DNA from: a virus
Lineage: Duplodnaviria > Heunggongvirae > Uroviricota > Caudoviricetes
Length of the DNA stretch: 16,592 nt
Direction: 5' to 3' (one strand)
IMG/VR virus record: IMGVR_UViG_2872169409_000009
Under the pieces are notes generated by a model that saw only the letters and a list, made by a program, of their open reading frames with translations, did no database searches and was not told where the DNA came from. Made by a program: the position numbers and the translations under genes. Shown here piece by piece: positions 1 through 16,592 of the stretch; position 1 is the first letter of the stretch; each line of letters begins with the position of its first letter.

Positions 1-789
1 TTATTTGATTTCAATTTTGTCCCACTCCCTGCCTCTGTCATCACGATACTGTGATGCCATGGTGTCCGACTTGTGCCCGAGAAGATGTTGAGCAAACTTA
101 TCGCTTATCTGCTTCTCATAGAGTCTTGCAGACAAACTGCGCAACTCGTGAAAGGTAGGTGGATCCCCTTCGAAGGAAAGACCTGATGCTTTTCGTGCGC
201 GCATAAAATACCTTGATACTGTGCCGGATGAAAGCGGTTCACGACGAGTAGATGCAATTATGGTTTCTCCGCCAAGAATCTCTTTGCATTTATCAAGTGT
301 TTCCTTCATTGATATCCCGAGAGCATCAACATGCAATGTTGTAGGGATGGCAATTTTTACGCCTGTTTTGCTTTGCTCGACATAAAGATATCCATCTACG
401 ATATCAGACCACTTCATTTCGCATAAATCACCAACTCGTTGCCCGGTAACAACAGCCAGTTCCATTGCAAGTCTGAGCCAACATGGTGATGATTCTGCTG
501 CTTGATAAATTTTCAGGTATTCGTCAGCCGTAAGTCTTGATCTCCTTACCTCTGATTTTGCTGCGCGAGTGGCAGCGACCGGGTTTGTTGTTATATGGCC
601 TTCAGCTATTGCCTCTCGGAATGCATCGCTCAGTGTTGATCTGATTAACTTGGCTGATGCCGCCTTGCCCTCGTCTATGTATCCATTGAGCATTGCCGCA
701 ATTTCTTTTGTGGTGATGTCTTCAAGTGGAGCATCAGGCAGCCCCCTCCTTATTGCTTTAATTTTGCTCATGTAATTTATGAGTGTCTT
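1..789 (-). pseudogene. int: Lambda-like tyrosine integrase, 5'-truncated: C-terminal 262 codons only, N-terminal ~94 codons replaced by IS911
   Basis: Minus-strand ORF 1..804 translates to ...KTLINYMSKIKAIRRG...HLLGHKSDTMASQYRDDRGREWDKIEIK, near-identical to my recollection of phage lambda Int from about residue 95 to the C-terminus. The first five codons of the track ORF (TTG start, MLTTS) are encoded by the IS911 terminus at 790..804. Stop codon is at 1..3. Confidence 0.9.
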
Positions 790-797
790 TGAAGTGG

Positions 798-1966
<1,169 letters not shown>

Positions 1967-2038
1967 TGGAGCACCTGTGTTGTTCTGAGGTGAGCATATC
2001 ACCTCTGTTCAGGTGGCCAAATTCAGTGTGCCACTTCA

Positions 2039-2284
2039 AAAGCTGAAAATGATGCTCTTCGGCGCAAGCTTGATAATGGTGGTCGGGTGCTCGTCAAAGG
2101 AAAATGCCCTGTGCCATCCTCAGCCGAAACCTCCAGCGCCTCCGGCATGGGCAATGATGCCACCGTCGAACTCTCTCCAGTTGCTGGACGAAACGTTCTC
2201 GGTATCCGGGACGGAATCATCAGCGACCAGACAGCATTGAGAATGCTTCAGGAGTACATCAGGATCCAATGCCTTGGGGGGTAG
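2039..2284 (+). pseudogene. Rz: Rz-like i-spanin, 5'-truncated (C-terminal ~81 codons; N-terminal TM and first coiled coil missing)
   Basis: Plus frame from 2039 reads KAENDALRRKLDNGGRVLVKGKCPVPSSAETSSASGMGNDATVELSPVAGRNVLGIRDGIISDQTALRMLQEYIRIQCLGG*, which aligns with lambda Rz from ..AKAENDALRDDVAAGRRRL.. to the ..EQCR C-terminus. The coding sequence begins abruptly at the IS911 end. Confidence 0.7.
2049..2240 (+). CDS. Rz1: Rz1-like o-spanin lipoprotein embedded in the +1 frame of Rz; annotated start and first codons lost at the IS911 junction, so function uncertain
   Basis: MMLFGASLIMVVGCSSKENALCHPQPKPPAPPAWAMMPPSNSLQ.. has a lipobox (VVGC) and proline-rich core like lambda Rz1 (..MMLCVMMLPLVVVGCTSK..KPPPPPAWIMQPP..). 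The lambda-type MLKLK n-region is replaced by IS-derived sequence; translation would have to start at the internal Met at 2049. Confidence 0.55.
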   Translation: MMLFGASLIMVVGCSSKENALCHPQPKPPAPPAWAMMPPSNSLQLLDETFSVSGTESSATRQH

Positions 2285-2372: not shown

Positions 2373-2882
2373 TTAGCTAAAAAAAGGCAACACGAAGCTA
2401 AAACTACCAACATAAAGTGCTGACCAGCTAGCAGCTGAAATCAGACTCACTGTATACACTTTCACTGGATGAAGTTGCAACATTCCTGCCACCAAAGGAG
2501 CAATGTAACGCAGCACGGCGATAAAGCGCGAAGTGAAAAGTATTGACACAGAGTTATTTTGCAACTGAAGGCGAACCCGTTCTATTGTATTGGAACGGCT
2601 CGATATTATACATGCAAGTTGAGGGATATGCCCAATTATTATACCAAGATGGTAATTAACGATCGTACCGCACCATGCGCCACTCATGACCGTGATTCCA
2701 GCTTCCCATGGTGAAAGAGTCGTCTTGCTGACTGTAATTACAGTGGCCATCATAATTGATGCTGGTGGCAATATCGCCGAAATGAGTAAAGTGGATTTTG
2801 TGAACGCTATTATAAAAAGAAGCCCCCATAGGCGATATGGATGAAGTACAAAATAGTTCATCAAAGCATTTATCCACTCCAT
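2373..2882 (-). CDS. Inner-membrane protein, DedA/YqaA-like (TVP38/SNARE-associated superfamily); prophage moron between the lysis and packaging modules
   Basis: 169-aa hydrophobic ORF with a DedA-type signature FTSRFIAVLRYIAPLVAGM (F..RF......R....AG). ATG at 2882 is preceded by AAGGAAAG (Shine-Dalgarno); the track ORF starts one codon earlier at a TTG. The gene is AT-rich compared with its neighbours and is transcribed opposite to the phage late genes. Confidence 0.55.
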   Translation of the reverse strand: MEWINALMNYFVLHPYRLWGLLFIIAFTKSTLLISAILPPASIMMATVITVSKTTLSPWEAGITVMSGAWCGTIVNYHLGIIIGHIPQLACIISSRSNTIERVRLQLQNNSVSILFTSRFIAVLRYIAPLVAGMLQLHPVKVYTVSLISAASWSALYVGSFSFVLPFFS

Positions 2883-3079
2883 CAATGTCTTTCCTTCTGT
2901 GAATTTTTCTTTGCTATTTAACCGTGATACGACTTAATTTAGGCTTAAACACCTTACATTTACAAGGTACTCCTGTGGGGGGCCCTGCCACGGAGCGTCG
3001 CAGGAGTGAGTGATGAGGAAGAATTAAAGCAACCTATTGTGACAGGCAGCGATAACAGTAAATCACAGGAAGCATAATC

Positions 3080-3844
3080 ATGGCAAAACCGGACTGGGAG
3101 GCCATCGAATCGGCATACCGGGCCGGAGTCCTTAGCCTCCGTGATATAGGCGAGAAATACGGCGTTACAGAAGGGGCTATCAGGAAGAGGGCCAAAAAGC
3201 TTGATTGGGCACGCAGTGGCGGTACGCAGGTTTGCAAAAATGGTACGCAAAAAAGGAAAGTGCGTACCAGCAGAAAGCCTGCCATTACTGGCCTTACACA
3301 AAAAAGTACGCAACTAAAAACAGAATCTACACCGGATACGAAACCGATACGCGGAATGCGTACCGATCCCCCGACTAACCCATTCCAACCCGGTAACCAG
3401 CAGGCATTAAAACACGGTGGTTATGCCCGTCGCCTTCTGCTCAAAGATGAGGTGATAGAGGACGCTAAAGCGTTGACGCTCGAGGACGAATTATTTCGCC
3501 TTCGTGCTAACAACCTTGTCGCTGCAGAGAATATTGGTCGGTGGTTGGTGTCGCTGGAAGATGCTAATGGGGACCAGGAAAGGAAGATGCTGATTGAAAA
3601 TATCAGCGCCGCCGAGAAAGCAATGATGCGCAATACAGTTCGTATTGAGTCCATCGTTGGCACGCTTGCGACGGTAGGAAAAATATTTGCTGATACAGCC
3701 TACCGCAAGGCCGCCACTGATAAGGTGTCTCTGGAGGCTGATCGTCTTCGCCGTGATGCAGGTATTGATGATGGCAATGGAGAGCGTGACCTCAATGACT
3801 TCTACTCTGACATCCAAACCGACGCTGAATCCGGCTTTACGTAG
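3080..3844 (+). CDS. Phage terminase small subunit (N-terminal HTH DNA-binding domain)
   Basis: 254-aa ORF immediately upstream of, and overlapping, the large terminase gene. N-terminus ..GVLSLRDIGEKYGVTEGAIRKRAKKLDW.. is HTH-like. RBS AGGAAG lies 8 nt upstream of ATG 3080. Confidence 0.7.
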   Translation: MAKPDWEAIESAYRAGVLSLRDIGEKYGVTEGAIRKRAKKLDWARSGGTQVCKNGTQKRKVRTSRKPAITGLTQKSTQLKTESTPDTKPIRGMRTDPPTNPFQPGNQQALKHGGYARRLLLKDEVIEDAKALTLEDELFRLRANNLVAAENIGRWLVSLEDANGDQERKMLIENISAAEKAMMRNTVRIESIVGTLATVGKIFADTAYRKAATDKVSLEADRLRRDAGIDDGNGERDLNDFYSDIQTDAESGFT

Positions 3845-4462
3845 TTTCTGGACTATGCGGGCACGTAACAAAGTGCTTTATGGTGGTCGGTCATCGTCAA
3901 AATCATGGGATGCCGCTGGCATTGCCATATTTCTGTCGAATAAATACACCCTGCGTTTTTGTTGTGCCCGTCAGATCCAGAATAAAATCGAAGAGTCGGT
4001 GTATACCCTGCTCAAAATTCAGATAGACAGGTTTGGTCTGCGGCACCGTTTCCGTATTCTGAACAACAAAATCATTAACCGGGTTACTGGCTCGGAATTT
4101 GTTTTTTATGGATTATGGCGCAACATCGAAGAAATTAAGTCACTGGAGGGGATCGATATGTTGTGGCTGGAAGAAGCCCACGCACTGACGGAATACCAGT
4201 GGAAAATTCTGGAGCCAACGATCCGTAAAGAGGGTTCGGAATGCTGGTTCATATTCAACCCCGGACTTGTTACTGATTTCGTCTGGCGCAACTTCGTTGT
4301 TGATCCGCCCGAAGGCACTCTCATCCGCAAAATTAACTATGACGAAAATCCGTTTCTGTCTGACACCATGCTTAAGGTTATCGACGCGGCGCGACGCCGT
4401 GATCCGGATGGTTTTAAACATGTGTATGAGGGCGTTCCGGAGTCTGATGATGATGCGGCAAT
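3795..4462 (+). pseudogene. Terminase large subunit, N-terminal ATPase fragment (interrupted by IS2)
   Basis: Track ORF 3687..4478 contains a Walker A-like motif (VLYGGRSSSKSWDAAG) and ..DMLWLEEAH.. (Walker B-like). The likely real start is ATG 3795, after a GGAG; the TTG at 3687 would overlap terS by 158 nt. The reading frame runs into the IS2 left end at 4463 and terminates at an IS-encoded TGA. Confidence 0.8.
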
Positions 4463-4553
4463 TAGACTGGCCCCCTGAATCTCCAGACAACCAGTATCAC
4501 TTATTTAAGTGATAGTCTTAATACTAGTTTTTAGACTAGTCATTGGAGAACAG

Positions 4554-4919
4554 ATGATTGATGTCTTAGGGCCGGAGAAACGCAGACGGCGTACCACACA
4601 GGAAAAGATCGCAATTGTTCAGCAGAGCTTTGAACCGGGGATGACGGTCTCCCTCGTTGCCCGGCAACATGGTGTAGCAGCCAGCCAGTTATTTCTCTGG
4701 CGTAAGCAATACCAGGAAGGAAGTCTTACTGCTGTGGCCGCCGGAGAACAGGTTGTTCCTGCCTCTGAACTTGCTGCCGCCATGAAGCAGATTAAAGAAC
4801 TCCAGCGCCTGCTCGGCAAGAAAACGATGGAAAATGAACTCCTCAAAGAAGCCGTTGAATATGGACGGGCAAAAAAGTGGATAGCGCACGCGCCCTTATT
4901 GCCCGGGGATGGGGAGTAA
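4554..4919 (+). CDS. insC: IS2 InsC (OrfA, transposition regulator)
   Basis: [56 protein letters not shown]... matches my recollection of IS2 InsC. RBS GGAGAA lies upstream of ATG 4554. Confidence 0.9.
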
Positions 4920-5782
4920 GCTTAGTCAGCCGTTGTCTCCGGGTGTCGCGTGCGCAGTTGCACGTCATTCTCAGACGAACCGATGACTGGATGGATGGCC
5001 GCCGCAGTCGTCACACTGATGATACGGATGTGCTTCTCCGTATACACCATGTTATCGGAGAGCTGCCCACGTATGGTTATCGTCGGGTATGGGCGCTGCT
5101 TCGCAGACAGGCAGAACTTGATGGTATGCCTGCGATCAATGCCAAACGTGTTTACCGGCTCATGCGCCAGAATGCGCTGTTGCTTGAGCGAAAACCTGCT
5201 GTACCGCCATCGAAACGGGCACATACAGGCAGAGTGGCCGTGAAAGAAAGCAATCAGCGATGGTGCTCTGACGGGTTCGAGTTCTGCTGTGATAACGGAG
5301 AGAGACTGCGTGTCACGTTCGCGCTGGACTGCTGTGATCGTGAGGCACTGCACTGGGCGGGGACTACCGGCGGCTTCAACAGTGAAACAGTACAGGACGT
5401 CATGCTGGGAGCGGTGGAACGCCGCTTCGGCAACGATCTTCCGTCGTCTCCAGTGGAGTGGCTGACGGATAATGGTTCATGCTACCGGGCTAATGAAACA
5501 CGCCAGTTCGCCCGGATGTTGGGACTTGAACCGAAGAACACGGCGGTGCGGAGTCCGGAGAGTAACGGAATAGCAGAGAGCTTCGTGAAAACGATAAAGC
5601 GTGACTACATCAGTATCATGCCCAAACCAGACGGGTTAACGGCAGCAAAGAACCTTGCAGAGGCGTTCGAGCATTATAACGAATGGCATCCGCATAGTGC
5701 GCTGGGTTATCGCTCGCCACGGGAATATCTGCGGCAGCGGGCTTGTAATGGGTTAAGTGATAACAGATGTCTGGAAATATAG
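4877..5782 (+). CDS. insD: IS2 InsD (OrfB, DDE transposase; expressed as the InsCD fusion via -1 frameshift at A6G 4871..4877)
   Basis: 301-aa ORF in the -1 frame relative to insC, with ..[11 protein letters not shown].. and a C-terminal ..[12 protein letters not shown].. motif. An A AAA AAG run sits at the orfA/orfB overlap. Confidence 0.85.
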
Positions 5783-5794
5783 GGGCAAATCCAG

Positions 5795-6527
5795 CAATCA
5801 TCAAACTGTCTTGGATAGAAGCCGCAGTGGATGCGCACAAAACGTTAAATTTCGAACCCAGTGGAAGAAAGCGTATTGGCTTTGACGTGGCTGACAGTGG
5901 TACAGATAAGTGCGCTAACGTTTACCGTCACGGATCCGTTGTTTTCTGGGCCGACGAATGGAAGGCCAAAGAAGATGAATTACTGAAGAGCTGCCAGCGT
6001 ACTTATCAGGCGGCGCTGGAGCGTGAAGCAGATATTGTTTACGACTCTATCGGTGTTGGTGCGTCTGCCGGTGCTAAATTCTCTGAAATTAACGCTGACC
6101 GGAAGAGCGAGAACGCATACGCGCGACGTGTGAATTACCAGAGGTTTAACGCCGGTGCTGGTGTGCATGAGCCAGATGACGAGTACAACGGCATCCCCAA
6201 CAAAGACTTTTTCGCAAATCTTAAGGCTCAGGCATGGTGGCTGACCGTTTCAGAAATACGTTTAACGCCATTAACAACGGAGAACAGTATCCTGTGGATG
6301 AGCTGATCAGCATAGATTCTCGTTGTCCGTTGCTTGAAAAGCTGAAACTGGAACTGACAACACCTCATCGTGATTTCGACCGTAACGGACGTGTGATGGT
6401 CGAAAGTAAAAAAGACCTCGCAAAACGCGAGATACCGTCACCAAACGTTGCTGATGCATTCATTATGGCCTTCGCGCCAATCGATACATCGCTGGATATC
6501 TGGGAACAGCTGGGGAGACAGGCCTGA
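5795..6527 (+). pseudogene. Terminase large subunit, C-terminal (nuclease) fragment; carries an additional frameshift near 6238..6243
   Basis: Removing IS2 and one copy of GCAAT restores the frame from 4462 into ..AAIIKLSWIEAAVDAHKTLNF..IGFDVADSGTDK... Track ORFs 5767..6306 and 6234..6527 are two overlapping frames of the same protein. Stop TGA overlaps the portal ATG (ATGA) at 6524..6527. Confidence 0.8.
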
Positions 6528-7993
6528 TGGCACGAAACAAACAAGCCCTGCGGCGAACTGTGCAGGCCACAGCTGATGGTTATGAGAATTTTATTGCCCG
6601 AGTAGGGATGCAGACACCTAACCAGCACTCAGCATCCACCTACCGGGCTAATTTCACCAGTCGTAACCGCATGCTGGTGGAATGGTCCTATCGTTCATCC
6701 TGGATCATCGGCGAAGCAGTCGATGCTATCCCGGATGATATGACCCGCAAAGGCATTCGCATCACTTCGGAAATTGATGCAAAAGATCGTGGCATTCTCG
6801 AATCACAACTGGATGAGTTGCAAATCTGGGATGCGCTGAATGACGTGCTGAAATGGTCGCGCCTCTACGGCGGCGCGGTGGGTTTCATCATGATTGAGGG
6901 GCAGGCACCAATGACCCCGCTGCGACCCGAAACCATCGGTAAGGGCAAGTTTAAGGGGATTCTCCCGCTCGACCGCTGGATGGTCGACCCGGCACTGACC
7001 CGCCGCATTAAAGATATGGGGCCGGACCTGGGTAAACCTGAGTTTTACGATGTGGTGACCACAGCAACGGGAATTCCTGCCTGGCGCATTCATCACAGTC
7101 GCCTGATTCGCTTTGATGGCGTCACGTTGCCATTTCAGCAGAAGATGACCGAGAACGAATGGGGAATGTCGGTTGTAGAGCGTATCTGGGATCGTCTTAC
7201 CGCGTTCGACAGCGCTACTGTCGGCGCGGCGCAGCTGGTCTACAAGGCGCATTTGCGTACCTACAGCGTGGAGAAGCTACGCGAGCTTATCGCACTTGGT
7301 GGTCCTGCGTATGAAGCGTTGCTGAAGAATATCGACCTGATTCGACAGTTCCAGAGTAATGAAGGCATGACGCTCATGGACTCGCGGGATAAGTTTGAAA
7401 CCCATCAGTACAGCTTCAGTGGTCTGGATGACATCCTTTCGCAGTTTGCAGAACAGATTAGTGGCGCTGTTGGTATCCCACTGGTGCGGTTGTTCGGACA
7501 GTCCCCGAAAGGATTTTCTACCGGTGATGCAGACCTTGCCAACTATTACGATCGCATCAGTTCGTTGCAGGAGAGGCGTTTACGTCTTCCGGTGCGGCGG
7601 ATACTGGACATCATGCATCGTTCGGAACTTGGCAAGCCGCTGCCGGACGATTTCACGTTTGAGTTTAACCCGCTCTGGCAAATGTCTGATGTCGATCGCT
7701 CAACGGTGGCGTTAAACACCACCAACGCAATCAGTACGGCGCTGGGTGATGGTCTGATGACACTGAAAGCCGCTATGACTGATTTGCGAGAAAATTCTGA
7801 CGTAACCGGCATAGGGGCATCCATTACCAACGAGGACATCGAGAATGCCGAAGATGAAGCGCCGCCCGGCATCGGCGAACCTGATGACGAACCGCAGGAG
7901 CCGTCAGGCGGAAATCCGGTATCGAACCAGCCTACGCAGGATAGCGAGGGCGGTCGGAGACATCGTAAATGGTCGCTACGATGGTTCAAATGA
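6527..7993 (+). CDS. Phage portal protein
   Basis: 488-aa ORF directly after the terminase genes with an acidic C-terminal tail (..EDEAPPGIGEPDDEPQEP..). Size and position are typical of portal proteins; family assignment (DUF1073-like) is from memory. Confidence 0.75.
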   Translation: MARNKQALRRTVQATADGYENFIARVGMQTPNQHSASTYRANFTSRNRMLVEWSYRSSWIIGEAVDAIPDDMTRKGIRITSEIDAKDRGILESQLDELQIWDALNDVLKWSRLYGGAVGFIMIEGQAPMTPLRPETIGKGKFKGILPLDRWMVDPALTRRIKDMGPDLGKPEFYDVVTTATGIPAWRIHHSRLIRFDGVTLPFQQKMTENEWGMSVVERIWDRLTAFDSATVGAAQLVYKAHLRTYSVEKLRELIALGGPAYEALLKNIDLIRQFQSNEGMTLMDSRDKFETHQYSFSGLDDILSQFAEQISGAVGIPLVRLFGQSPKGFSTGDADLANYYDRISSLQERRLRLPVRRILDIMHRSELGKPLPDDFTFEFNPLWQMSDVDRSTVALNTTNAISTALGDGLMTLKAAMTDLRENSDVTGIGASITNEDIENAEDEAPPGIGEPDDEPQEPSGGNPVSNQPTQDSEGGRRHRKWSLRWFK

Positions 7994-8627
7994 CAGTATC
8001 ACGGAAATTATTGCGGCGCTGGAGCGTTACAGTGAAATCATCACCCCCTGGGCGACAAAGGTCGCGGAAAACTTTACTGCGGACCTAACCCGGCAGAACG
8101 AGAAAGTTTGGCGGCAACACAGCAAGAACATCAGTCGCGAGCTCCGCAATCTTGTGGAAAGCGCTCCTGTGGGCCAGGTGATGCAATCCATCATCGCCGA
8201 ACAGGTCAAGTACATCAAATCTCTGCCTCTCGAGGCCGCAGACAGGGTGTACGACATCCAGAACAAAGCGATAGAGGCTGTTGTCACCGGTGGTCGGGCG
8301 GAGCAGTTTGCTAAAGAGATTGCATCTACCGGCGATGTTGCTAAGTCTAGGGCCGATCTGATTGCCCGAACGGAACTGGGAAGAGCAACGGGCGCGCTGG
8401 ATATGGCCCGAGCGATAGCTATTGGCTCGGATGGTTATATTTGGCGTACAGCCGATGATGGCGATGTCCGAGATTCCCACGATCACATGAAAGGTAAATT
8501 CGTCCGCTGGGATTCACCTCCAACTTTGGACGGCATGACCGGCCACGCGGGCGAGCTGCCAAACTGCCGCTGCTATAAAGAGATCGTGTTTGTTCGCGTT
8601 CCATTCGCAATGAAAAGGGCAGCATAA
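7845..8627 (+). CDS. Head morphogenesis protein (Mu gpF / SPP1 gp7 family); start uncertain, overlaps the portal 3' end
   Basis: 260-aa ORF with a conserved ..WRTADDGDVRDSHDHMKGKFVRWD.. core typical of Mu F-like minor head proteins. Candidate ATG starts at 7845, 7854 and 7884 all lie inside the portal ORF. Confidence 0.7.
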   Translation: MPKMKRRPASANLMTNRRSRQAEIRYRTSLRRIARAVGDIVNGRYDGSNDSITEIIAALERYSEIITPWATKVAENFTADLTRQNEKVWRQHSKNISRELRNLVESAPVGQVMQSIIAEQVKYIKSLPLEAADRVYDIQNKAIEAVVTGGRAEQFAKEIASTGDVAKSRADLIARTELGRATGALDMARAIAIGSDGYIWRTADDGDVRDSHDHMKGKFVRWDSPPTLDGMTGHAGELPNCRCYKEIVFVRVPFAMKRAA

Positions 8628-8630
8628 CCC

Positions 8631-9410
8631 ATGAAATACTTTTTTGAGACCAGGCTCGGGGAAACCCGATACCGCCTGGCTGACGGCTCGTTGCTGTGCA
8701 AAGACGTGCCGATAGGACGAACAGGTAAGCAGCTCTATGGTGCTGATGACCTGCCAAAACTGAAACCCGATAAGTTCGTTGAAATAGTCGTCACGCGTTC
8801 TCCTGAGCAGGTATTCCATCCGGCCACGCTTGCCTCATTCGAAGGGATGAGCATCACGATCCTGCATCCTGAAGATGAAAACGGGAATGTGCGGCTGGTA
8901 AATCCCGAGAACTGGAAAGTGCTTGCTGTCGGGCACCTCCAGAATGTCCGGCGCGGGACGGGTGAGCAGTCTGATTTGATGCTGGCTGACCTTATCGTCA
9001 AAGACGAAAGCGCCATTCAGCTTATCGAAGATGGCCTGCGCGAAGTGTCGTGCGGCTATGACGCGGAGTACGAGCAGACCGAGCCAGGTAAAGCCGAGCA
9101 GGTCGATATTACCGGAAACCATGTGGCTCTTGTCCCTAAAGGCAGAGCCGGAAATCGTTGTGCAATTGGAGACAGAGACACAATGGCAAATCAAAAGAAA
9201 AACTGGTGGAACCGCATGCGTGCGGCCATCAAGACAGGAGATGCCGACACCATGAACGAACTGGTGGAGTCGGCTCCCGCATCGGTTACAGGAGATGAGG
9301 GGGATTTGCCGCAGGGCGTTAATCTCAACATCAACCTGTCCCCGCAGCAACCACTACCGGACAAAGCACCAGAGATGGGCGGAGATCCAACCGGCGACAG
9401 TGATGATGAC
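8631..9410 (+). pseudogene. Putative capsid scaffolding/protease-like head protein, 5' part (gene interrupted by IS600 copy 1)
   Basis: ORF 8631..9413 terminates at a TGA formed by the first bases of IS600. Its frame resumes after the IS at 10675 and runs to 11118, giving a ~407-aa protein with an acidic, low-complexity linker. Function is inferred from position between the head morphogenesis and capsid genes. Confidence 0.6.
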
Positions 9411-9453
9411 TGAGGTGTACTGGCAATAGCGGACACTACCATTTGTTCTTTTT

Positions 9454-10272
9454 TTAAGCAGCCATCTGATGATATTTTTCCCTGAAGGCTGCCGGGGAGA
9501 TATTCCCCAGACGAGAGTGACGACGCTGACGATTGTAGAAAATCTCAATGTATTCCCGTATTACTGAGATGGCTTCATCCCGGTTATTAAAACGATAGTG
9601 GCTCAGGCTCTCATTTTTCAGCGTTCCCCAGAAGCTTTCCATCGGAGCGTTGTCGTAACAGTTACCTTTACGCGACATTGATGTTTTCAGACCAGACTGC
9701 TCCTGTATGACCCGGTAATCGTATGCGCAGTACTGTGAACCTCGATCAGAGTGGTGGATTAGCCCGGCAGGTGGGCGCTGGCTCCTGAGCGCCATAAACA
9801 GGGCTTTACCTGTCAGCTCTTTTGTCATGCGCTCTCCCATGGCGTAGCCGACAATTTCACACGTATAAACATCTTTGATGCCAGCGAGGTACAACCATCC
9901 CTCCTGTGTGGCAACATACGTCAGGTCCGCCACCCAGACCTGATTTGGTGCTGTAGGAGCGAACGTCTGGTTCAGCAGATTTGGCGCAACTGGCAGATTG
10001 TGGTTCGGGTTCGTAGTCGCTCTGAACTTGCGTTTCTGCTTACAGCGTAGCCTTAGCTCCTTACGAAGACGTGCCAGTCGGTCACGACCAACGATGATGC
10101 CATTCTCTGCCAGCTCCGTCTGGAGCCGCCGGGTTCCATATGTTTCGCGAGTGCGGATATGTGCCACCTTAATCTCCAGTTTTAGCCGCTCATCACTTTG
10201 TTTTCTGTCTGAGGGTTCATGCTGTACCCAGTTGTAATAACCGCTCCTGGATACACCAAATACCTGACACAT
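9454..10272 (-). CDS. IS600 OrfB transposase (copy 1; -1 frame relative to OrfA)
   Basis: 272-aa DDE transposase (..HHSDRGSQYCA.., ..RKGNCYDNAPMESFWGTLKNE..) matching my recollection of IS600 OrfB. Confidence 0.85.
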   Translation of the reverse strand: MCQVFGVSRSGYYNWVQHEPSDRKQSDERLKLEIKVAHIRTRETYGTRRLQTELAENGIIVGRDRLARLRKELRLRCKQKRKFRATTNPNHNLPVAPNLLNQTFAPTAPNQVWVADLTYVATQEGWLYLAGIKDVYTCEIVGYAMGERMTKELTGKALFMALRSQRPPAGLIHHSDRGSQYCAYDYRVIQEQSGLKTSMSRKGNCYDNAPMESFWGTLKNESLSHYRFNNRDEAISVIREYIEIFYNRQRRHSRLGNISPAAFREKYHQMAA

Positions 10273-10307
10273 CGCTTCAATAGGAAATTGTTGTCGCCAT
10301 TGTTCGA

Positions 10308-10610
10308 TTAACGCGTATTTTTCAGCGACTCCTGTGCAAAATACGCTGTTGCTTTTTTTAATATATCTCGCTCAAGGCGAGCTTCATTTAACGCCTTACG
10401 CAGTTGCAGAATTTCAGATTCCAGTTCAGCCAGCGTGCGGGAACCAGGAGTACCGAGCCCTTTTCTGGCGGCGGTAACCCATTGTCCTAAAGTGCCTTCA
10501 GGAAGAGATAATCGGGAAGCGCCTTCACTGATCGAAAGTTGATTTTCAAGAACCGTTCTGACAGCTTCGGCTTTGAACTCTTTAGAGTAACGTTGGGTTT
10601 TTCTGCTCAT
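10308..10610 (-). CDS. IS600 OrfA (copy 1)
   Basis: MSRKTQRYSKEFKAEAVRTVLENQLSISEGASRLSLPEGTLGQWV... is an IS3-family OrfA; it ends just after an A7G slippery run (minus strand, about 10353..10360). Confidence 0.85.
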   Translation of the reverse strand: MSRKTQRYSKEFKAEAVRTVLENQLSISEGASRLSLPEGTLGQWVTAARKGLGTPGSRTLAELESEILQLRKALNEARLERDILKKATAYFAQESLKNTR

Positions 10611-10674
10611 TATTAGCTCCTTCTGATGCCATTCTATTTCAGGAAGGAGTGTCCGTTAAACTCAGGCTACCTCA

Positions 10675-11118
10675 GACCTCAAAACATTACTGAAAGCCCT
10701 GCTGGCTAAGCTGGAAAGAAATGCCACGGGCGATAACGATAATAAGCCTGACGATAATCCGACCGGTGACGGCGAGGACGATGAAGAGGAAACCACGATT
10801 ACTGGTGACTCAGCCTGGCGTGCCGAAGTTATCGTTCCGGGTATCGATCTGAGCCGTAAGATGAAACCGACCGCGTTCAAACGCGAGGTTCTGGCTTCTG
10901 CTGACAAAACGCTGGTTCGCCAGATAGTCGGTGATGCGGATATCCGCAAATTACCGAAACAATCGGTCGACATGGCGTTTAATGCCGTGTCTGAGGTTGC
11001 CAAAGGGCGAAACACCCGCGCCACCACCGGCGATGCACAGCGCCTAAACATGGGCATGACCAGTATCGCTTCCCTGAACAAACAAAACGCTGAATTCTGG
11101 GCAAACCGTAAAGGGTAA
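10675..11118 (+). pseudogene. 3' part of the IS600-interrupted scaffold/protease-like head gene
   Basis: Same reading frame as 8631..9410 once the IS and one GAC copy are removed: ..LKTLLKALLAKLERNATGDNDNKPDDNPTGDGEDDEEE..MKPTAFKREVLASADK..AEFWANRKG*. Confidence 0.6.
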
Positions 11119-11121
11119 AAA

Positions 11122-11611
11122 ATGAATAATGTATTTCTGTACCGGATGCCTGTTGGCATTGCCGGGGCTGTCTCTCGCCCGCAGGACTTAACCGTCGAAC
11201 CGGTGGTCCTTAAATCCGATAACGCCTTCGCTGCCTATGGCCTGGCTGGTAAATACGATGATGACGGTTTTTTCGTGCCGCTGGCAGATGGTGATACCGC
11301 AGACAAGGTGAAGGGGATCTACGTGCGCCCTTATCCGACCACGTCGCAGCCGGACATGGTTCGCCAGGTGGGAACAGGCAAGAACTTCCCGGGCGACGCC
11401 ATGAAGCGTGGCTACGTGACCGTTAATCTCGGTTCTGATTTTGATGCCAGCACTATCAAAAAAGGCGATCTCCACTGATGAATCCATCAAAGTGCCTCTG
11501 GGTGGATTCATGTCCACGTCAGTCAGTGGCAAAAACGTGGTGCTGACCAACGCTGAATTCACAGGTGCCGGTGATGCTGACGGCAATGCAGAAATTTCCT
11601 GGAAGATTTAA
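11122..11611 (+). pseudogene. Small phage head protein (possible decoration or head-stabilisation protein) with an apparent frameshift in an A6 tract
   Basis: ORF 11122..11478 (118 aa) stops at TGA, but the next frame continues with clearly protein-like sequence (..ESIKVPLGGFMSTSVSGKNVVLTNAEFTGAGDADGNAEISWKI*) up to 11611. The frame change maps to the A6 run at 11458..11463. Confidence 0.45.
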
Positions 11612-11622
11612 GGAACAGACGA

Positions 11623-12564
11623 ATGATTACTTTTGATCAGGCAACCGTTGACAGCTCTGGTGCCTTTCTCATCGGGGAGCTGGAGAGACTCGACCAGACG
11701 CTGAACCTGCCACTGGTGGGGTACACCTGGAGCCGCGATATTCAACTGCGTGAAGACGCCTCCATCGCAGATGACATTTCCAGCTGGACGAATACCAGCT
11801 TCGCCGCTGCGGGTACTGGCGCAAATCCGAATGGAAAAAACTGGGTAGGCAAAGACTCAACCGCTATTGCTGGCGTGAACGTGGATATCGGCAAATCCGG
11901 TAACCCGCTGAACCTGTGGGGGATGGAACTTGGCTGGACGGTCATAGAATTGCAGGCTGCTCAGCAGGTCGGCCGCCCGATTGATACGCAGAAGTATGAC
12001 GGTATGCAACTGAAATGGCAGATGGATAACGATGAACAGGTATATGTTGGCGATTCCGCATTAAACCTGAAAGGCCTTGTTACCCTGGACGGCGTGCCTG
12101 TCAACAACGCTGCCAAAACGTGGGCAACCTCAACACCGGACGAAATCCGCGCAAGCATTAACCAGGTGCTGTCTGATGCGTGGGCCGCTTCTGGTTACTC
12201 TGTGGTTCCGCGTGATTTGCTGATCCCGCCTGAGCAGTTTGCTCTGTTGTCCAGCATCATCGTTTCATCTGCAGGTAACCAGTCCCTGTTGACGAACCTT
12301 CAGACCAACACCATCAGCTATCACCAGAACGGTGTTCCGCTGAATATCCGCGCGGTTAAATGGCTGAAAGGCCGTGGTGTGGGGAATAAGGATCGCATGG
12401 TTGCGTACACCAACGATAAAAAATACGTCCGCTACCCGCTGGTTCCGCTTCAGAGCGTGCCGGTGCAGTATCGCGGTCTGTATCAGATCGTCACTTACTA
12501 CGGCAAGCTGGGTGCAGTCGAGCCAGTGTACAAAGAAACCATTTCGTACGTTGATGGCATTTAA
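11623..12564 (+). CDS. Major capsid protein
   Basis: 313-aa ORF with a strong RBS (AAGGA), located after the scaffold and decoration-like genes, and followed by a GC-rich hairpin. Its composition and size fit a major capsid protein; I recall it as DUF2184-type but cannot verify that here. Confidence 0.7.
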   Translation: MITFDQATVDSSGAFLIGELERLDQTLNLPLVGYTWSRDIQLREDASIADDISSWTNTSFAAAGTGANPNGKNWVGKDSTAIAGVNVDIGKSGNPLNLWGMELGWTVIELQAAQQVGRPIDTQKYDGMQLKWQMDNDEQVYVGDSALNLKGLVTLDGVPVNNAAKTWATSTPDEIRASINQVLSDAWAASGYSVVPRDLLIPPEQFALLSSIIVSSAGNQSLLTNLQTNTISYHQNGVPLNIRAVKWLKGRGVGNKDRMVAYTNDKKYVRYPLVPLQSVPVQYRGLYQIVTYYGKLGAVEPVYKETISYVDGI

Positions 12565-12571
12565 CAGCCAC

Positions 12572-12592
12572 ATGGCCCCCTGGCGGGGCCAT
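12572..12592 (+). other. GC-rich hairpin (8-bp stem ATGGCCCC/GGGGCCAT, 5-nt loop) directly after the capsid gene; possible transcript-stability or attenuator element, no U-tract
   Basis: A perfect inverted repeat is visible in the sequence 8 nt after the capsid stop codon. Confidence 0.35.
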
Positions 12593-12605
12593 TAAGGATG
12601 ACCCG

Positions 12606-12804
12606 ATGGCAAAAAATGATGCAGTAATACACGTACATACCCCGTTTGTGCTCACGCTTCCCGACGGTTCTCGGCGCGAGTTTGTTAAAGGCCGTCATGT
12701 TGTGGAGGAAGACGTTGCCACGCACTGGTTCACTCGTGCGCACGCGGAAGTATCCGTTGGCAAAGCCACAGACGCGCGTAACGAGGTAAAAAATGCCAAA
12801 GAAT
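12606..12804 (+). pseudogene. Phage head-completion/adaptor-like gene, 5' fragment (about 66 codons) truncated by IS600 copy 2
   Basis: ATG 12606 is preceded by AAGGATG. The ORF MAKNDAVIHVHTPFVLTLPDGSRREFVKGRHVVEEDVATHWF.. runs into the IS600 end at 12805. Function is inferred from position only. Confidence 0.45.
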
Positions 12805-12847
12805 TGAGGTGTACTGGCAATAGCGGACACTACCATTTGTTCTTTTT

Positions 12848-13666
12848 TTAAGCAGCCATCTGATGATATTTTTCCCTGAAGGCTGCCGGGGAGATATTCC
12901 CCAGACGAGAGTGACGACGCTGACGATTGTAGAAAATCTCAATGTATTCCCGTATTACTGAGATGGCTTCATCCCGGTTATTAAAACGATAGTGGCTCAG
13001 GCTCTCATTTTTCAGCGTTCCCCAGAAGCTTTCCATCGGAGCGTTGTCGTAACAGTTACCTTTACGCGACATTGATGTTTTCAGACCAGACTGCTCCTGT
13101 ATGACCCGGTAATCGTATGCGCAGTACTGTGAACCTCGATCAGAGTGGTGGATTAGCCCGGCAGGTGGGCGCTGGCTCCTGAGCGCCATAAACAGGGCTT
13201 TACCTGTCAGCTCTTTTGTCATGCGCTCTCCCATGGCGTAGCCGACAATTTCGCACGTATAAACATCTTTGATGCCAGCGAGGTACAACCATCCCTCCTG
13301 TGTGGCAACATACGTCAGGTCCGCCACCCAGACCTGATTTGGTGCTGTAGGAGCGAACGTCTGGTTCAGTAGATTTGGCGCAACTGGCAGATTGTGGTTC
13401 GGGTTCGTAGTCGCTCTGAACTTGCGTTTCTGCTTACAGCGTAGCCTCAGCTCCTTACGAAGACATGCCAGTCGGTCACGACCAACGATGATGCCATTCT
13501 CTGCCAGCTCCGTCTGGAGCCGCCGGGTTCCATATGTTTCGCGAGTGCGGATATGTGCCACCTTAATCTCCAGTTTTAGCCGTTCATCACTTTGTTTTCT
13601 GTCTGAGGGTTCATGCTGTACCCAGTTGTAATAACCGCTCCTGGATACACCAAATACCTGACACAT
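12848..13666 (-). CDS. IS600 OrfB transposase (copy 2)
   Basis: 272 aa, identical to copy 1 except R67C (..RDRLACLRKEL..). Confidence 0.85.
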   Translation of the reverse strand: MCQVFGVSRSGYYNWVQHEPSDRKQSDERLKLEIKVAHIRTRETYGTRRLQTELAENGIIVGRDRLACLRKELRLRCKQKRKFRATTNPNHNLPVAPNLLNQTFAPTAPNQVWVADLTYVATQEGWLYLAGIKDVYTCEIVGYAMGERMTKELTGKALFMALRSQRPPAGLIHHSDRGSQYCAYDYRVIQEQSGLKTSMSRKGNCYDNAPMESFWGTLKNESLSHYRFNNRDEAISVIREYIEIFYNRQRRHSRLGNISPAAFREKYHQMAA

Positions 13667-13701
13667 CGCTTCAATGGGAAATTGTTGTCGCCATTGTTCG
13701 A

Positions 13702-14004
13702 TTAACGCGTATTTTTCAGCGACTCCTGTGCAAAATACGCTGTTGCTTTTTTTAATATATCTCGCTCAAGGCGAGCTTCATTTAACGCCTTACGCAGTTG
13801 CAGAATTTCAGATTCCAGTTCAGCCAGCGTGCGGGAACCAGGAGTACCGAGCCCTTTTCTGGCGGCGGTAACCCATTGTCCTAAAGTGCCTTCAGGAAGG
13901 AATAATCGGGAAGCGTCTTCACTGATCGAAAGTTGATTTTCAAGAACCGTTCTGACAGCTTCGGCTTTGAACTCTTTAGAGTAACGTCGGGTTTTTCTGC
14001 TCAT
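13702..14004 (-). CDS. IS600 OrfA (copy 2)
   Basis: MSRKTRRYSKEFKAEAVRTVLENQLSISEDASRLFLPEG...; differs from copy 1 at three residues. Confidence 0.85.
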   Translation of the reverse strand: MSRKTRRYSKEFKAEAVRTVLENQLSISEDASRLFLPEGTLGQWVTAARKGLGTPGSRTLAELESEILQLRKALNEARLERDILKKATAYFAQESLKNTR

Positions 14005-14068
14005 TATTAGCTCCTTCTGATGCCATTCTATTTCAGGAAGGAGTGTCCGTTAAACTCAGGCTATCTCA

Positions 14069-15700
14069 ATAAACCGTGCTGTGTAACTGCTGTGGATCAA
14101 ATCTGACCACAACTTTTTTCACTCCGGCATTCATTAATGCCATGTTGTAATAAACGTTTTTCGCGCCTTTAAGGGAGCCGCCAACTTTAAGCGTAAACTC
14201 GCCTTTGCGTGAAACGTTCACCGCCTCGGCAGGCAGTAACAGCATCCGTTTTTGTTCTTCGGTTGGCTTACGCACAATCGTTCTGGCGTATTCACGCTCG
14301 AAAACATCATCAAACGAGAGTTTGCCCCCGCACATTTCTGTTTCACGGCCTGTTCTGGCATTGAACATCGCCACACCTTCGGCAAAGGTTTTCAGAAACA
14401 GCTCTGCATCAACAGCGTGGTCGCCATAGTTATCAGGTTTTGCCTGCGGATTTGGCCCCGTATATGCGCCAGCCAGTGCCGGATGCTTATCAACGTATTC
14501 CTCAAGCCCACCAACACCGAAAGCACGTTCAACAGGTTTTGCCTGGCCCCAGCCTTTACCGGCAACAACGCTTGTCCAGTGCATTTTCGCACCCATCAGT
14601 AAAAACAGTCCTTTTGGATCGTCCTCTTTTACCTTAAAGCGGTAGCGATTGGGCGCGCCTCCCGTCAGCCATTTATTCGCAGCACCACGGGTGTTATCAA
14701 TGGTGATGTGAAAATCCTCCGGGATACTGTAGCGAGTCACAACATCCATGAACGAGAGGCGAATTGAATCAATGTTCTTGCTCACATCGCAGCGCCAGCC
14801 CAGAATTTTTCGGGTTTTCACATCCTGCCAGAACCATGTTTTCGGACGGATCACATCACCGTTAAACCAGCGTACAAAGACGTTATGCAGATAACCGTCG
14901 CCGTTGATCCACTGCATGGCGTCCAGGTGTTCCACAGTTCGCTGCTGTGCCGGTATCAGATGCATCAGTGCATGTTCACCTTCACGACAGGCAACAACCA
15001 TTGCCTCGTCCAGTTGCTGAATCCGGCGAAAGGCCGTGGCACGGGAGGGAATACTCCAGCCATGCTCGCGGACTGCCAGTTCCAGACGCTCATAACATTT
15101 GCGGAAGGCGGGTTTTTCCGGTCGCAGATAATCTGCAATCAGAAACTGCCAGGCATCCTCGTCAAATTCACTTTTGTGAACATTGCGACGGGATGCTCCA
15201 CGTCCATCAACAAGTGCAGCCGCCCAGTCAGGCTTCGCAAACTTCTGTACCTGGTAATACTTGTCCCGCAAAGTGGATGCGCTGACCTGGTAATGCCCTG
15301 CAACGGTCGCAAAAGCCGTTTTCGTTGAAATCCCCTGGTTCAGCATTTCGTCTGTGGCCTGAATTGAGGGCAACCATTTTTCAGCCAGGCTGCGCTGGGA
15401 ATCGCTGGCTTTATCCCATTTGCTCCATAGTACCTCACGATCATAATCATGAGCTTCCAGCGTGGGGCGGGCGATTTCAAAACATCCCTGACTGGTTTTA
15501 AATTTTCCTTGTTGGAGCAAAACTTCAGCTCGAGCAATGTTAGGAAGAGAAGATATATGGTATTCGTAAGCAACCCCTCTAATTCCTTCTCTTCTTCTCT
15601 TGAGCCATCCTTCTCTCTGAGCTCTTTTGTGAACCCCCATTAATGAACCAGGTAAACCAGATAAACCCATGCATTCAATTGCTGATATCCACTCTCTCAT
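14069..15700 (-). pseudogene. A: Mu/D108-like transposase A, 3'-truncated after codon 544 by IS600 (C-terminal domain III missing)
   Basis: 544-aa ORF ..[109 protein letters not shown].. is near-identical to my recollection of phage Mu MuA across the core. The N-terminal ~60 residues diverge, as in D108. The ORF ends ..PQQLHSTVY and its stop codon is provided by the IS600 terminus. Confidence 0.9.
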
Positions 15701-15929
15701 TGTGATCCCTTAGATATCTACTAGGCCAAATTTCCTCAGGTTTCATGTTTAAGGCGTCAGCAATAATGCGTTCACCTTTAGGCCATGGCCTGACTAATGC
15801 ATTTGCAAGCGTCCCGGTTGAATAACCTGAACGTCTGGACAATTTTGCCAGAGGGGTTCCTGTTTTTTTGAGGGCCGCAATCACGTCGGCCCGATGCCAA
15901 TCGTTACTCATCTTTCGCACACCAACCAT
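15675..15929 (-). CDS. ner: Ner-like early transcriptional regulator (Mu/D108 Ner, Nlp family)
   Basis: ..[56 protein letters not shown].. matches the Ner/Nlp signature. Lies immediately upstream of A and overlaps the A start by 26 nt. Alternative ATG start at 15911. Confidence 0.8.
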
Positions 15930-16082: not shown

Positions 16083-16592
16083 ATGAAAAGCGCAAATGAG
16101 ATAAACCAGTGGATGACACCCAAACAAATTACTGAACTGGATGGAATGCCAGGGACAATACAGGGGGTGCATAAACGAGCAAAGAAAGAAGGATGGCCGA
16201 AGCGTTCACAAGAAGGGCGTCGCGGGCCTGGGGTTGAATATATCCCGGCAATACCGGCTATGCAAAAAATTGCTATCGAAGAAATGAATGCTGATACATT
16301 GAAAATGTTCTCCCTGTTAATCAATAAACTAGGAGAAAATGAAGTCCGAGAGATAGAGCTAAACATGGCTAAATATGGGCTTTCCGGATTAATGCAAGAA
16401 CGCCCCTCCATCTCCGTTGACACCCTATTGGCAACGCTGGGTATTGATCGCCAAACACTACAAACAGCTTTGGCGCTGCATAAATTACCTCCAGAAACTC
16501 GCCAAGAGATTTTGTCAATGTATGGTGTTCATAAACAGGAAGAGCCTGTAGCTCCTTTGTTGGAACCACAAGATGCGAAAAAAGCCGTATAA
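16083..16592 (+). CDS. c: Mu/D108-like c repressor (Repc)
   Basis: 169-aa ORF whose N-terminal domain (..DGMPGTIQGVHKRAKKEGWPKRSQEGRRGPGVEY..) parallels the A N-terminal domain (..[34 protein letters not shown]..). C-terminus ..EILSMYGVHKQEEPVAPLLEPQDAKKAV resembles the Mu repressor C-terminus (..QEPQEVKKAV). Transcribed divergently from ner. Confidence 0.85.
   Translation: MKSANEINQWMTPKQITELDGMPGTIQGVHKRAKKEGWPKRSQEGRRGPGVEYIPAIPAMQKIAIEEMNADTLKMFSLLINKLGENEVREIELNMAKYGLSGLMQERPSISVDTLLATLGIDRQTLQTALALHKLPPETRQEILSMYGVHKQEEPVAPLLEPQDAKKAV

Follow-up and report, generated by a model that had tools for sequence, protein, structure and literature searches.

Two IS600 copies around a capsid-gene segment of Shigella flexneri: a recent insertion and an old recombination scar

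The 16,592-nt window analyzed here, an IMG/VR virus record, contains two IS600 elements in direct orientation around 2.1 kb of phage head genes, and the second of them joins DNA of two unrelated prophages. How did this pair arise, and is it a mobile unit or a product of genome decay? Sequence comparison identified the window with CP026792.1 at full identity, and its junction proteins are named Shigella flexneri in their source records, including strain 2a 2457T. This part of the S. flexneri chromosome is heavily decayed; copy 1 is a recent simple insertion in it, and copy 2 is the scar of an old recombination that connects two dead prophages. The pair is an ordinary, well-documented kind of Shigella genome decay, a type of event already known from published genomes.

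Two decayed prophages in one window

The features of the window are collected in Table 1. The integrase at the left end lacks its N-terminal arm-binding part, and leftward of it the same genome continues with ybhC-ybhJ-ybhI-ybhH-ybhD. The adjoining IS911 is flanked by CTT and AAA, with no target duplication, and is a second chimeric junction in the window (integrase' / 'Rz). The Rz/Rz1 remnant behind it, called as Rz1 in the gene annotation, is 99.6% identical to the FDAARGOS_944 prophage, with collinearity beginning inside the 'lysis protein' gene of the latter. The exact DedA/VTT protein is present in 5113 index blocks, while a Pfam search with the small-terminase candidate gave no significant match. 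Within terL, IS2 carries a 5-bp duplication, GCAAT, evident from its flanks and from a 5-bp overlap in the alignment to the intact relative (L001).

Table 1. Features of the window with their positions, strands and the basis of each assignment
Feature	Position	Strand	Basis
Tyrosine integrase, 5'-truncated; prophage at lambda attachment site beside ybhC	1..789	-	Pfam Phage_integrase, E = 8.9e-41
IS911	790..2038	-	Annotation in E. coli matches; ends and flanks read; orfA and orfB Pfam matches
Rz/Rz1 lysis gene, 3' remnant; lambdoid-early / SEN34-like prophage	2039..2284	+	Collinearity with FDAARGOS_944
DedA/VTT-domain moron gene	2373..2885	-	Pfam VTT_dom
Putative small terminase, 254-aa hypothetical protein upstream of terL	3080..3844	+	Position in intact relative
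Large terminase gene (terL), PBSX-type, split by IS2	3795..6534	+	Pfam Terminase_3
IS2 within terL	4463-5793		IS2 orfB match
Portal protein, DUF1073 / Phage_portal_3	6527..7993	+	Pfam, E = 3.3e-106
Mu-F-like head morphogenesis protein	7884..8627	+	Pfam Phage_Mu_F and gene call
DUF2213 head gene, 5' part, scaffold/protease-like, interrupted by copy 1	8631..9410	+	Pfam DUF2213, E = 1.3e-41
IS600 copy 1	9411..10674	-	3-bp GAC duplication; empty sites in relatives
DUF2213 gene, 3' part	10675..11118	+	Collinear with L001 18050-18493
Cement/decoration protein gene, frameshifted	11122..11478	+	Pfam XM1_gp53_minor_capsid / Phage_cement
Major capsid protein DUF2184 (PF09950), intact, 313 aa	11623..12564	+	Pfam, E = 2.5e-86
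STY1053-family gene, cut after codon 66 of 73	12606..12804	+	Breakpoint on L001 at 20196/20197
IS600 copy 2, recombinant (best reading)	12805..14068	-	Flanks AAT/ATA, no target duplication
Mu-like transposase A (MuA), codons 1-544 of 662	14069..15700	-	Pfam HTH_Tnp_Mu_1/2, DDE_2, partial Mu-transpos_C
Ner-like regulator	15675..15929	-	Pfam HTH_35, E = 5.3e-29; position as in UMNF18 Mu-like prophage
Mu c-type repressor	16083..16592	+	Pfam HTH_Tnp_Mu_1

The initial annotation had called the head genes lambdoid. This label suits the intact relative, FDAARGOS_944, only in its early and lysis modules, which display the lambda-like order int-xis, cI-cro, replication, Q-like and lysis, and of which only the Rz remnant is left in the window. 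The label does not fit the head and tail genes, where genes of the lambda siphovirus type were not found; the structural genes form a myoviral, SEN34-like module (PBSX terL, DUF1073 portal, DUF2184 capsid, DUF3383 sheath and baseplate). The same head module, consisting of PBSX-type terL, DUF1073 portal, Mu-F, DUF2213, cement, DUF2184 and STY1053 genes, is found in SEN34-like / vB_EcoM-689R2-like temperate myoviruses (95% nucleotide identity) and in the ipaH-carrying prophage of FDAARGOS_943/944 (99.4-99.6%). Compared with these relatives, the window prophage is truncated by IS911 on one side and by IS600 on the other, carries internal insertions of IS2 and IS600 and a frameshift in its cement gene, and lacks the neck, tail and ipaH part at this locus.

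The interval between the IS600 copies (10675-12804; 2,130 bp) consists of head genes. Alignment to L001 placed a 17-bp deletion after position 11468 in the cement gene, leaving 118 of 168 aa. At the border with copy 2, the gene described initially as a truncated lambdoid head-completion gene is indeed truncated, but it is a STY1053-family gene of the SEN34-like myoviral module, overlapped by a DUF4054 gene of which the first 4 codons remain (12793-12804). The resulting 81-aa STY1053 fusion ORF, named in S. flexneri 2a 2457T, occurs in 471 index blocks.

On the other side of copy 2, the MuA domain set is preceded by a ner gene and a divergent c repressor, resembling the Mu-like prophage of UMNF18 in c-ner-A order, MuA domain architecture and nucleotide sequence (93% identity). 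In contrast to UMNF18, only the left ~2.9 kb remains next to copy 2, B and all late genes are missing from this locus, and MuA is without its last 118 residues. The truncation at codon 544 noted earlier holds, as 544 Mu-derived codons stand against the 662-aa UMNF18 protein; the ORF (14066-15700) ends at a TGA (14066-14068) supplied by the IS600 end. The Mu-like prophage sits in dpiA: its left end is immediately outside the window, as is the 3' half of dpiA, with 'dpiA-dcuC next in one locus (L004), and in another (L025) the dpiA halves share 5 bp, K-12 654201-654205, the Mu target duplication. In the window genome, the right end of this prophage is missing at the copy 2 locus.

Two IS600 copies with different flanks

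Judged by sequence, both elements are IS600 of the IS3 family, 99.6-99.8% identical to the 'IS3-like element IS600' annotated in E. coli RefSeq genomes. Each carries two intact minus-strand ORFs, orfA (100 aa, HTH_Tnp_1) and orfB (272 aa, rve); the source annotation gives a joined product of 385 aa, a putative frameshift fusion. The imperfect terminal inverted repeats, with ends TGAGGTGTACTGGC... and TGAGGTAGCCTGAG..., have a terminal TGAGGT and an internal CGGACAC in common, and one end of copy 2 reads TGAGAT. Base-by-base comparison at an offset of 3394 revealed two 1264-bp direct repeats with 11 substitutions (99.13% identity), in agreement with the initial claim of two same-orientation copies about 99% identical. 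The roughly ten substitutions had been described as scattered; the count was close, but all 11 fall within IS positions 449-1260, after 448 bp without any difference. That the copies are not a recent duplicate pair is supported by the lack of copy 1 in most genomes with copy 2, but not by the ~1% divergence, which is unsafe as a clock because orthologous IS600 elements in sibling genomes vary in SNP pattern, a variation that indicates gene conversion among IS600 copies.

The boundaries of copy 1 read ...GATGAC / IS / GACCTC..., a 3-bp duplication whose match would occur by accident with a chance of 1/64. Re-reading of the flanks agreed with the GAC duplication reported for this copy, as did the empty site with a single GAC found in >25 related loci, including L007 and S. 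flexneri 5b 8401 (CP000266.1). In sibling genomes, the uninterrupted DUF2213 gene encodes 406 aa. The 260-aa fusion ORF made by copy 1 occurs in 107 index blocks, compared with 471 for the copy 2 fusion ORF, and copy 1 is missing from most genomes having copy 2. This distribution and the flanks mark copy 1 as a late insertion into the DUF2213 head gene, specific to one sublineage.

Copy 2, on the other hand, is bounded by ...AAGAAT / IS / ATAAAC..., and careful re-reading yielded no matching 3-bp repeat, as had been noted at first. The boundary cannot be moved to create a duplication, because copy 1 and its empty site fix the IS ends.

The chimeric junction at copy 2

The STY1053' / IS600 / 'MuA junction is conserved in 19 loci, identical in all 10 of the contexts displayed, and is present with both flanks in S. 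flexneri 5b 8401 (CP000266.1). Intact relatives run on past both breakpoints: in FDAARGOS_944 the neck, sheath, baseplate, tail fibre and ipaH genes follow, and in UMNF18 the remainder of MuA and MuB. Neither copy 2 junction was present in the intact phages and E. coli genomes searched. These observations bear out the proposal that copy 2 is an IS-mediated scar fusing two unrelated prophages, and by its distribution the junction is older than copy 1 and widely shared in S. flexneri.

An assembly error across the repeated IS could produce such a chimera, as IS600 is multicopy and short-read contigs do break there (L005, L006, L037 and L038). Yet the same junction with both flanks recurs in IMG/VR contigs and in many independent megabase-scale contigs, most of them >4.4 Mb (including CP026788.1, CP000266.1, CP007037.1, LR213452.1 and CP033510.1), and we consider this explanation hardly credible.

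Both halves of the junction also exist apart from each other. STY1053' / IS600 is joined to a tail-fibre region in one S. flexneri locus (L020), while IS600 / 'MuA is joined to the Mu tail-fibre gene S' in situ in dpiA in SFJ17B, CP100042.1 and UGYT01000001.1, where the 5-bp Mu duplication is retained. Of the 11 distinct IS600 sites in the fetched loci, 8 show no duplication and have half-junctions in common. Since each half-junction is joined to a different sequence in further S. flexneri genomes, the best reading of copy 2 from these sequence contexts is a recombinant between two IS600 copies.

A different origin would be intramolecular transposition of a single IS600 between the prophages, which would form an adjacent deletion or inversion without another IS600 already in place. 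This predicts the lack of a target duplication at copy 2, and it would also accord with our searches, in which neither the STY1053/DUF4054 site nor the MuA site yielded an IS600 with a matching duplication; original simple insertions at both sites are hypothetical for this reason. However, the separate half-junctions, each with IS600 and another partner, imply that IS600 copies stood at both sites. Moreover, IS3-family elements transpose by a copy-out/paste-in route via a circular intermediate, and adjacent deletions are not typical of this mode. The flank geometry also misfits one deletion or one inversion. We therefore regard a single transposing element as unlikely.

Specifically, the left chromosomal flank corresponds to K-12 799.6->807.3 kb and the right flank to K-12 654.2->663 kb, both forward. 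Read against the K-12 map, the copy 2 junction is neither of the deletion type nor of the single-inversion type, and joining 807 kb forward to 654 kb forward needs more than one rearrangement. This geometry excludes a simple deletion and a single inversion alike. Of the initial suggestion of an IS-mediated deletion or recombination, recombination agrees with the half-junctions elsewhere, while a simple deletion disagrees with the K-12 flank order. The partner junction, which had been proposed as a target for searching, was not recovered: IMG/VR gave 0 matches to Mu S'...GTT or ...ATA / IS600 / AATCAAAGTCTGCC... or an equivalent, nor did the fetched loci contain one.

Origin and fate of the IS600 pair

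The arrangement superficially resembles a composite transposon such as Tn9 or Tn10, in which a passenger is flanked by two copies of one IS. Had the pair brought in the capsid segment as a unit, two full-length, apparently intact IS600 in direct orientation around 2.1 kb would be expected, as observed. The outer flanks, however, share no duplication (GAC before copy 1, ATA after copy 2), the bracketed DNA is native, being collinear with the neighbouring head genes in the intact prophage, and siblings have copy 2 without copy 1 and with the DUF2213 gene uninterrupted. In contrast to Tn9 and Tn10, copy 1 and copy 2 were not acquired together. The resemblance pointed out initially is formal only, and arrival as a transposon can practically be dismissed.

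The initial annotation had also proposed the direct repeats as a substrate for deletion of the capsid gene. In fact, S. flexneri UGYS01000001.1 (L034) reads DUF2213'-GAC / one IS600 / ATAAACC-'MuA, which is exactly the product predicted for a copy 1 x copy 2 deletion, although this rests on one assembly, in which repeat collapse is formally possible. The IS alleles of this genome fit a crossover within the first ~660 bp.

Taken together, we consider it very probable that copy 2 is an IS600 x IS600 recombinant, that copy 1 is a later insertion, and that the pair can delete. In this history, a prophage combining lambdoid early/lysis and SEN34-like head/tail modules has an IS600 in its STY1053/DUF4054 overlap, at ...AAGAAT, as the junction and its relatives display. 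A Mu-like prophage entered dpiA with its 5-bp duplication, and an IS600 occupies its A gene at ATAAACC, codon 544, as seen in the in situ loci. Homologous recombination between the IS600 at both sites may then have generated the hybrid copy 2, probably as one among several rounds of IS600/IS911 exchanges, and the junction would have become fixed in a large part of S. flexneri. With STY1053' as its neighbour at one end and 'MuA at the opposite end, such a hybrid would carry no target duplication. Later, in one sublineage, another IS600 moved into the DUF2213 gene 3.4 kb away by the usual IS3-family transposition, creating the GAC duplication and the direct-repeat pair; in one genome, recombination within the pair has removed one IS and the capsid segment. 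The order of events and the lineage arrangement regarded as ancestral are inferred.

The head-gene block, from the portal to the intact major capsid gene, persists in hundreds of S. flexneri assemblies with both ends truncated. It might be kept by selection, for instance to supply capsid parts to a different mobile element, the IS600 pair then serving as an on/off deletion switch; we consider this very improbable. Set against such selection, both terL and DUF2213 are disrupted by insertions, the cement gene carries a frameshift, and the capsid gene is missing from one strain. Nothing suggests that the arrangement is more than a by-product of IS expansion and prophage inactivation, with no sign of function.

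IS-mediated rearrangement and prophage decay are reportedly also evident in the 2457T genome. Comparison of S. flexneri 8401 with 301 disclosed IS-mediated inversions, IS600 ones included, and a translocation (PMC1550401); the locus described here involves the same element and the same process, with nothing different in kind, and shares with those rearrangements that IS copies without duplications mark recombination breakpoints. Its own history (half-junction partners, late copy 1 and natural deletion variant) was not found described in the literature searched.

The finding has little significance beyond bookkeeping. It carries a warning about prophage predictors and short-read assemblies, in which these two unrelated prophage remnants cause breaks or may be fused, and the presence or absence of copy 1 together with the junction partners could serve as a lineage marker. 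For Shigella, the locus is a worked example of a duplication-less IS600 as a marker of a recombination breakpoint, and it illustrates that nearby direct IS repeats do delete intervening DNA in nature.

Gene layout and the IS600 pair

The chromosome CP026792.1 (4.63 Mb, assembly GCA_002950235.1) is 100% identical to the window, and the source names for the junction-specific ORFs assign them to Shigella flexneri, with 2a str. 2457T among the strains.

Features of the window in left-to-right order
Feature	Position	Strand	Remarks
Tyrosine integrase gene	1-789	minus	5'-truncated
IS911	790-2038		flanks CTT/AAA, without duplication
Rz/Rz1 remnant	2039-2284		
DedA/VTT-domain gene, moron-like	2373-2885	minus	between lysis and terminase genes
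Putative small terminase gene			after the DedA-family gene
PBSX-type large terminase gene			split by IS2 at 4463-5793, 5-bp duplication GCAAT
Portal gene, then Mu-F-like head morphogenesis gene			after the large terminase gene
DUF2213 head gene			broken by IS600 copy 1
IS600 copy 1	9411-10674		
Cement/decoration protein gene	11122-11478		17-bp deletion after 11468, frameshift
DUF2184 major capsid gene			intact
STY1053-family gene			ends after codon 66, at IS600 copy 2
IS600 copy 2	12805-14068		between STY1053-family gene and Mu-like transposase A
Mu-like transposase A (MuA) gene		minus	544 of 662 codons; stop codon from IS end
ner-like gene and c-type repressor gene			right end of window

The cement gene of the window encodes 118 aa versus 168 aa, and the copy in S. 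flexneri 5b 8401 (CP000266.1) is intact. An independent IS2 lies in the same large terminase gene of E. coli FDAARGOS_943, 215 bp away. The DedA/VTT protein, whose gene looks like a prophage moron, occurs as an exact sequence in 5113 index blocks, a number that no junction ORF approaches. To the right of the window, dcuC (7005-8389 of the surrounding locus) is divided into two ORFs of 257 and 213 aa; it is intact (461 aa) in several siblings, and the split form is probably a pseudogene specific to this strain.

When the window is compared with itself base by base, shifted by 3,394 bp, the IS600 copies prove to be 1,264-bp direct repeats differing by 11 substitutions, every one in IS positions 449-1260. 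Each matches annotated IS600 elements (IS3 family) of E. coli genomes at 99.6-99.8% identity, and both retain intact orfA (100 aa) and orfB (272 aa) on the minus strand. Copy 1 has GAC on both sides; the left flank of copy 2 is AAT and its right flank ATA. Re-examination of the copy 2 flanks disclosed no matching 3-bp duplication; since copy 1 and its empty site fix the IS ends exactly, the boundary cannot be shifted into one. The initial annotation had described both copies, their flanks and the bracketed segment accurately. Copies of this sort are usual in these genomes: of the 11 distinct full-length IS600 sites in the fetched loci, 8 are without duplication, and several have half-junctions in common.

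Many related loci, CP000266.1 among them, carry copy 2 together with an uninterrupted 406-aa DUF2213 gene, in which the empty copy 1 site reads ...GATGAC/CTCAAA.... The 260-aa ORF fusing truncated DUF2213 to the IS has 107 index-block listings, and the 81-aa fusion of truncated STY1053 has 471. Copy 1 is thus a simple insertion of late date. Orthologous IS600 copies of the window and three siblings (L007, L031, L036) differ mosaically at several positions, which suggests that copies within one genome undergo gene conversion, so that the divergence of about 1% would be no clock.

Two truncated prophages joined at copy 2

The prophage to the left of copy 2 is 99.4-99.6% identical to the complete prophage of E. 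coli FDAARGOS_944 and 943, which combines lambdoid early and lysis genes with a SEN34-like myovirus late module, is flanked by ybhA and pgl and has ipaHb at its end. In this relative the left breakpoint reads ...GCCAAAGAAT/CAAAGTCTGCC..., within the overlap of the STY1053-family and DUF4054 genes, and the genes for neck, sheath, baseplate and tail fibre come next. The Mu-like part matches a complete Mu-like prophage of E. coli UMNF18 at 93% identity; there the right breakpoint (...GGGTGTAACA/ATAAACCGTG...) lies inside the 662-aa MuA gene, followed by MuB. The un-rearranged tail region and Mu-like B that the initial annotation had proposed to seek are thus present in these relatives and, because these run on past both breakpoints, both prophages are truncated at copy 2. 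A search of phage records and of 5,426 complete E. coli genomes gave neither of the copy 2 junctions. The intact left-prophage relative at ybhA-pgl in NZ_CP065613.1 (4286289-4329172) carries the T3SS effector gene ipaHb at its end; given this gene, the head-gene block of the window is probably a vestige of an ipaH-carrying phage.

The arrangement of truncated STY1053, IS600 and truncated MuA was kept in 10 of 10 contexts shown, of which 8 are complete chromosomes, as well as in several contigs from IMG/VR. Each half also occurs with another partner. In the locus L020, IS600 links truncated STY1053 to a tail-fibre/DUF4376 region; this partner could have come from a deletion in place within the left prophage, though its best FDAARGOS_944 match lies in another prophage. 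In SFJ17B, CP100042.1, UGYT01000001.1 and two IMG/VR contigs, IS600 links truncated MuA to that end of its own Mu-like prophage which bears truncated tail-fibre S, gin, com and mom; the prophage lies in situ in dpiA, with its 5-bp Mu duplication at K-12 654201-654205. The dpiA locus of several S. flexneri genomes (L025, L053, L060-L062) reads mom-com-gin-truncated S, IS600, truncated A-ner-c, and this remnant is an internal deletion associated with IS600. As each half-junction has another partner elsewhere in S. flexneri, IS600 copies once stood at both sites. Copy 2 marks an old recombination event, and the best account of it is a hybrid IS600 formed by homologous recombination between the copies at these two sites. 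The proposed IS-mediated fusion of two prophage remnants is borne out by the intact relatives and these half-junctions.

Chromosomal flanks and the reciprocal product

A deletion had been one of the origins proposed for the copy 2 junction, and the chromosomal flanks do not fit it. Left of the window, ybhD-ybhH-ybhI-ybhJ-ybhC corresponds to K-12 799.6 to 807.3 kb in forward orientation, ending at the lambda attachment site; on the right, truncated dpiA-dcuC-pagP...dacA corresponds to 654.2 to 663 kb, likewise forward. A backward jump with unchanged orientation is neither one deletion nor one inversion and requires at least two events. IS-mediated inversions between S. flexneri genomes, one of them IS600-mediated, have been described, as has a translocation (PMC1550401).

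IS911 forms a second chimeric joint, linking the truncated lambda-site integrase to an Rz remnant that stems from another prophage. The integrase could be taken as part of the left prophage; since it lies at the lambda site by ybhC and the intact relative at ybhA-pgl, it belongs to a different prophage, joined via IS911. The left partner of IS911 varies among S. flexneri genomes (the ybhC-integrase side, the cstA/entH side or a primase/DnaB prophage).

A reciprocal product of the exchange would carry GACCTTATTGTT/TGAGGTGTAC on the side of the truncated Mu S gene or ...CTCA/AATCAAAGTCTGCC on the DUF4054 side. Exact-pattern searches of IMG/VR for IS600 followed after 0-6 nt by CAAAGTCTGCCAGCGG, and for ACAATA/IS600, gave 0 matches. 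DNA beyond both breakpoints was in none of the S. flexneri loci compared for it; only E. coli reference loci have it. Searching with the exact Mom and tail-fibre sequences yielded nothing but the in-situ Mu remnant or contigs that stop at the edge of IS600; no hit came from a genome in which the window's junction has been shown.

Other leads to the partner were discarded. The neck terminator, truncated dpiA fragment and Mom cluster representatives are not exact Shigella sequences; P0138 is simply a frameshifted dpiA allele of an E. coli; and an IpaHb match belongs to another ipaH prophage remnant, one lying between yfhH and yfhL, and not to the partner. This second remnant, of the same phage type (L070-L079, e.g., CP182555.1 2549928-2571754), has truncated int joined through IS600 to a truncated baseplate gene without duplication (AAA/AAC), and IS2 in its tail-fibre region.

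Loss of the capsid segment and prophage decay

In one assembly, UGYS01000001.1, a single IS600 stands between the left flank of copy 1 (truncated DUF2213) and the right flank of copy 2 (truncated MuA), and the 2,130-bp capsid segment is absent. Its IS alleles equal those of a sibling's copy 2 from position 661 on, so that the crossover falls within the initial ~660 bp. The predicted product of recombination between copies 1 and 2 thus exists in this assembly, in line with the suggestion that the pair is deletion-prone. The suggested likeness to a composite transposon does not hold: the two outer flanks are unlike each other, the DNA between the IS copies is the prophage's own and collinear with it, and the copies were acquired at separate times. 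IS600-scarred prophage decay of the kind seen here is ordinary for Shigella, and the phenomenon can be seen in genomes that were published from the early 2000s onward.
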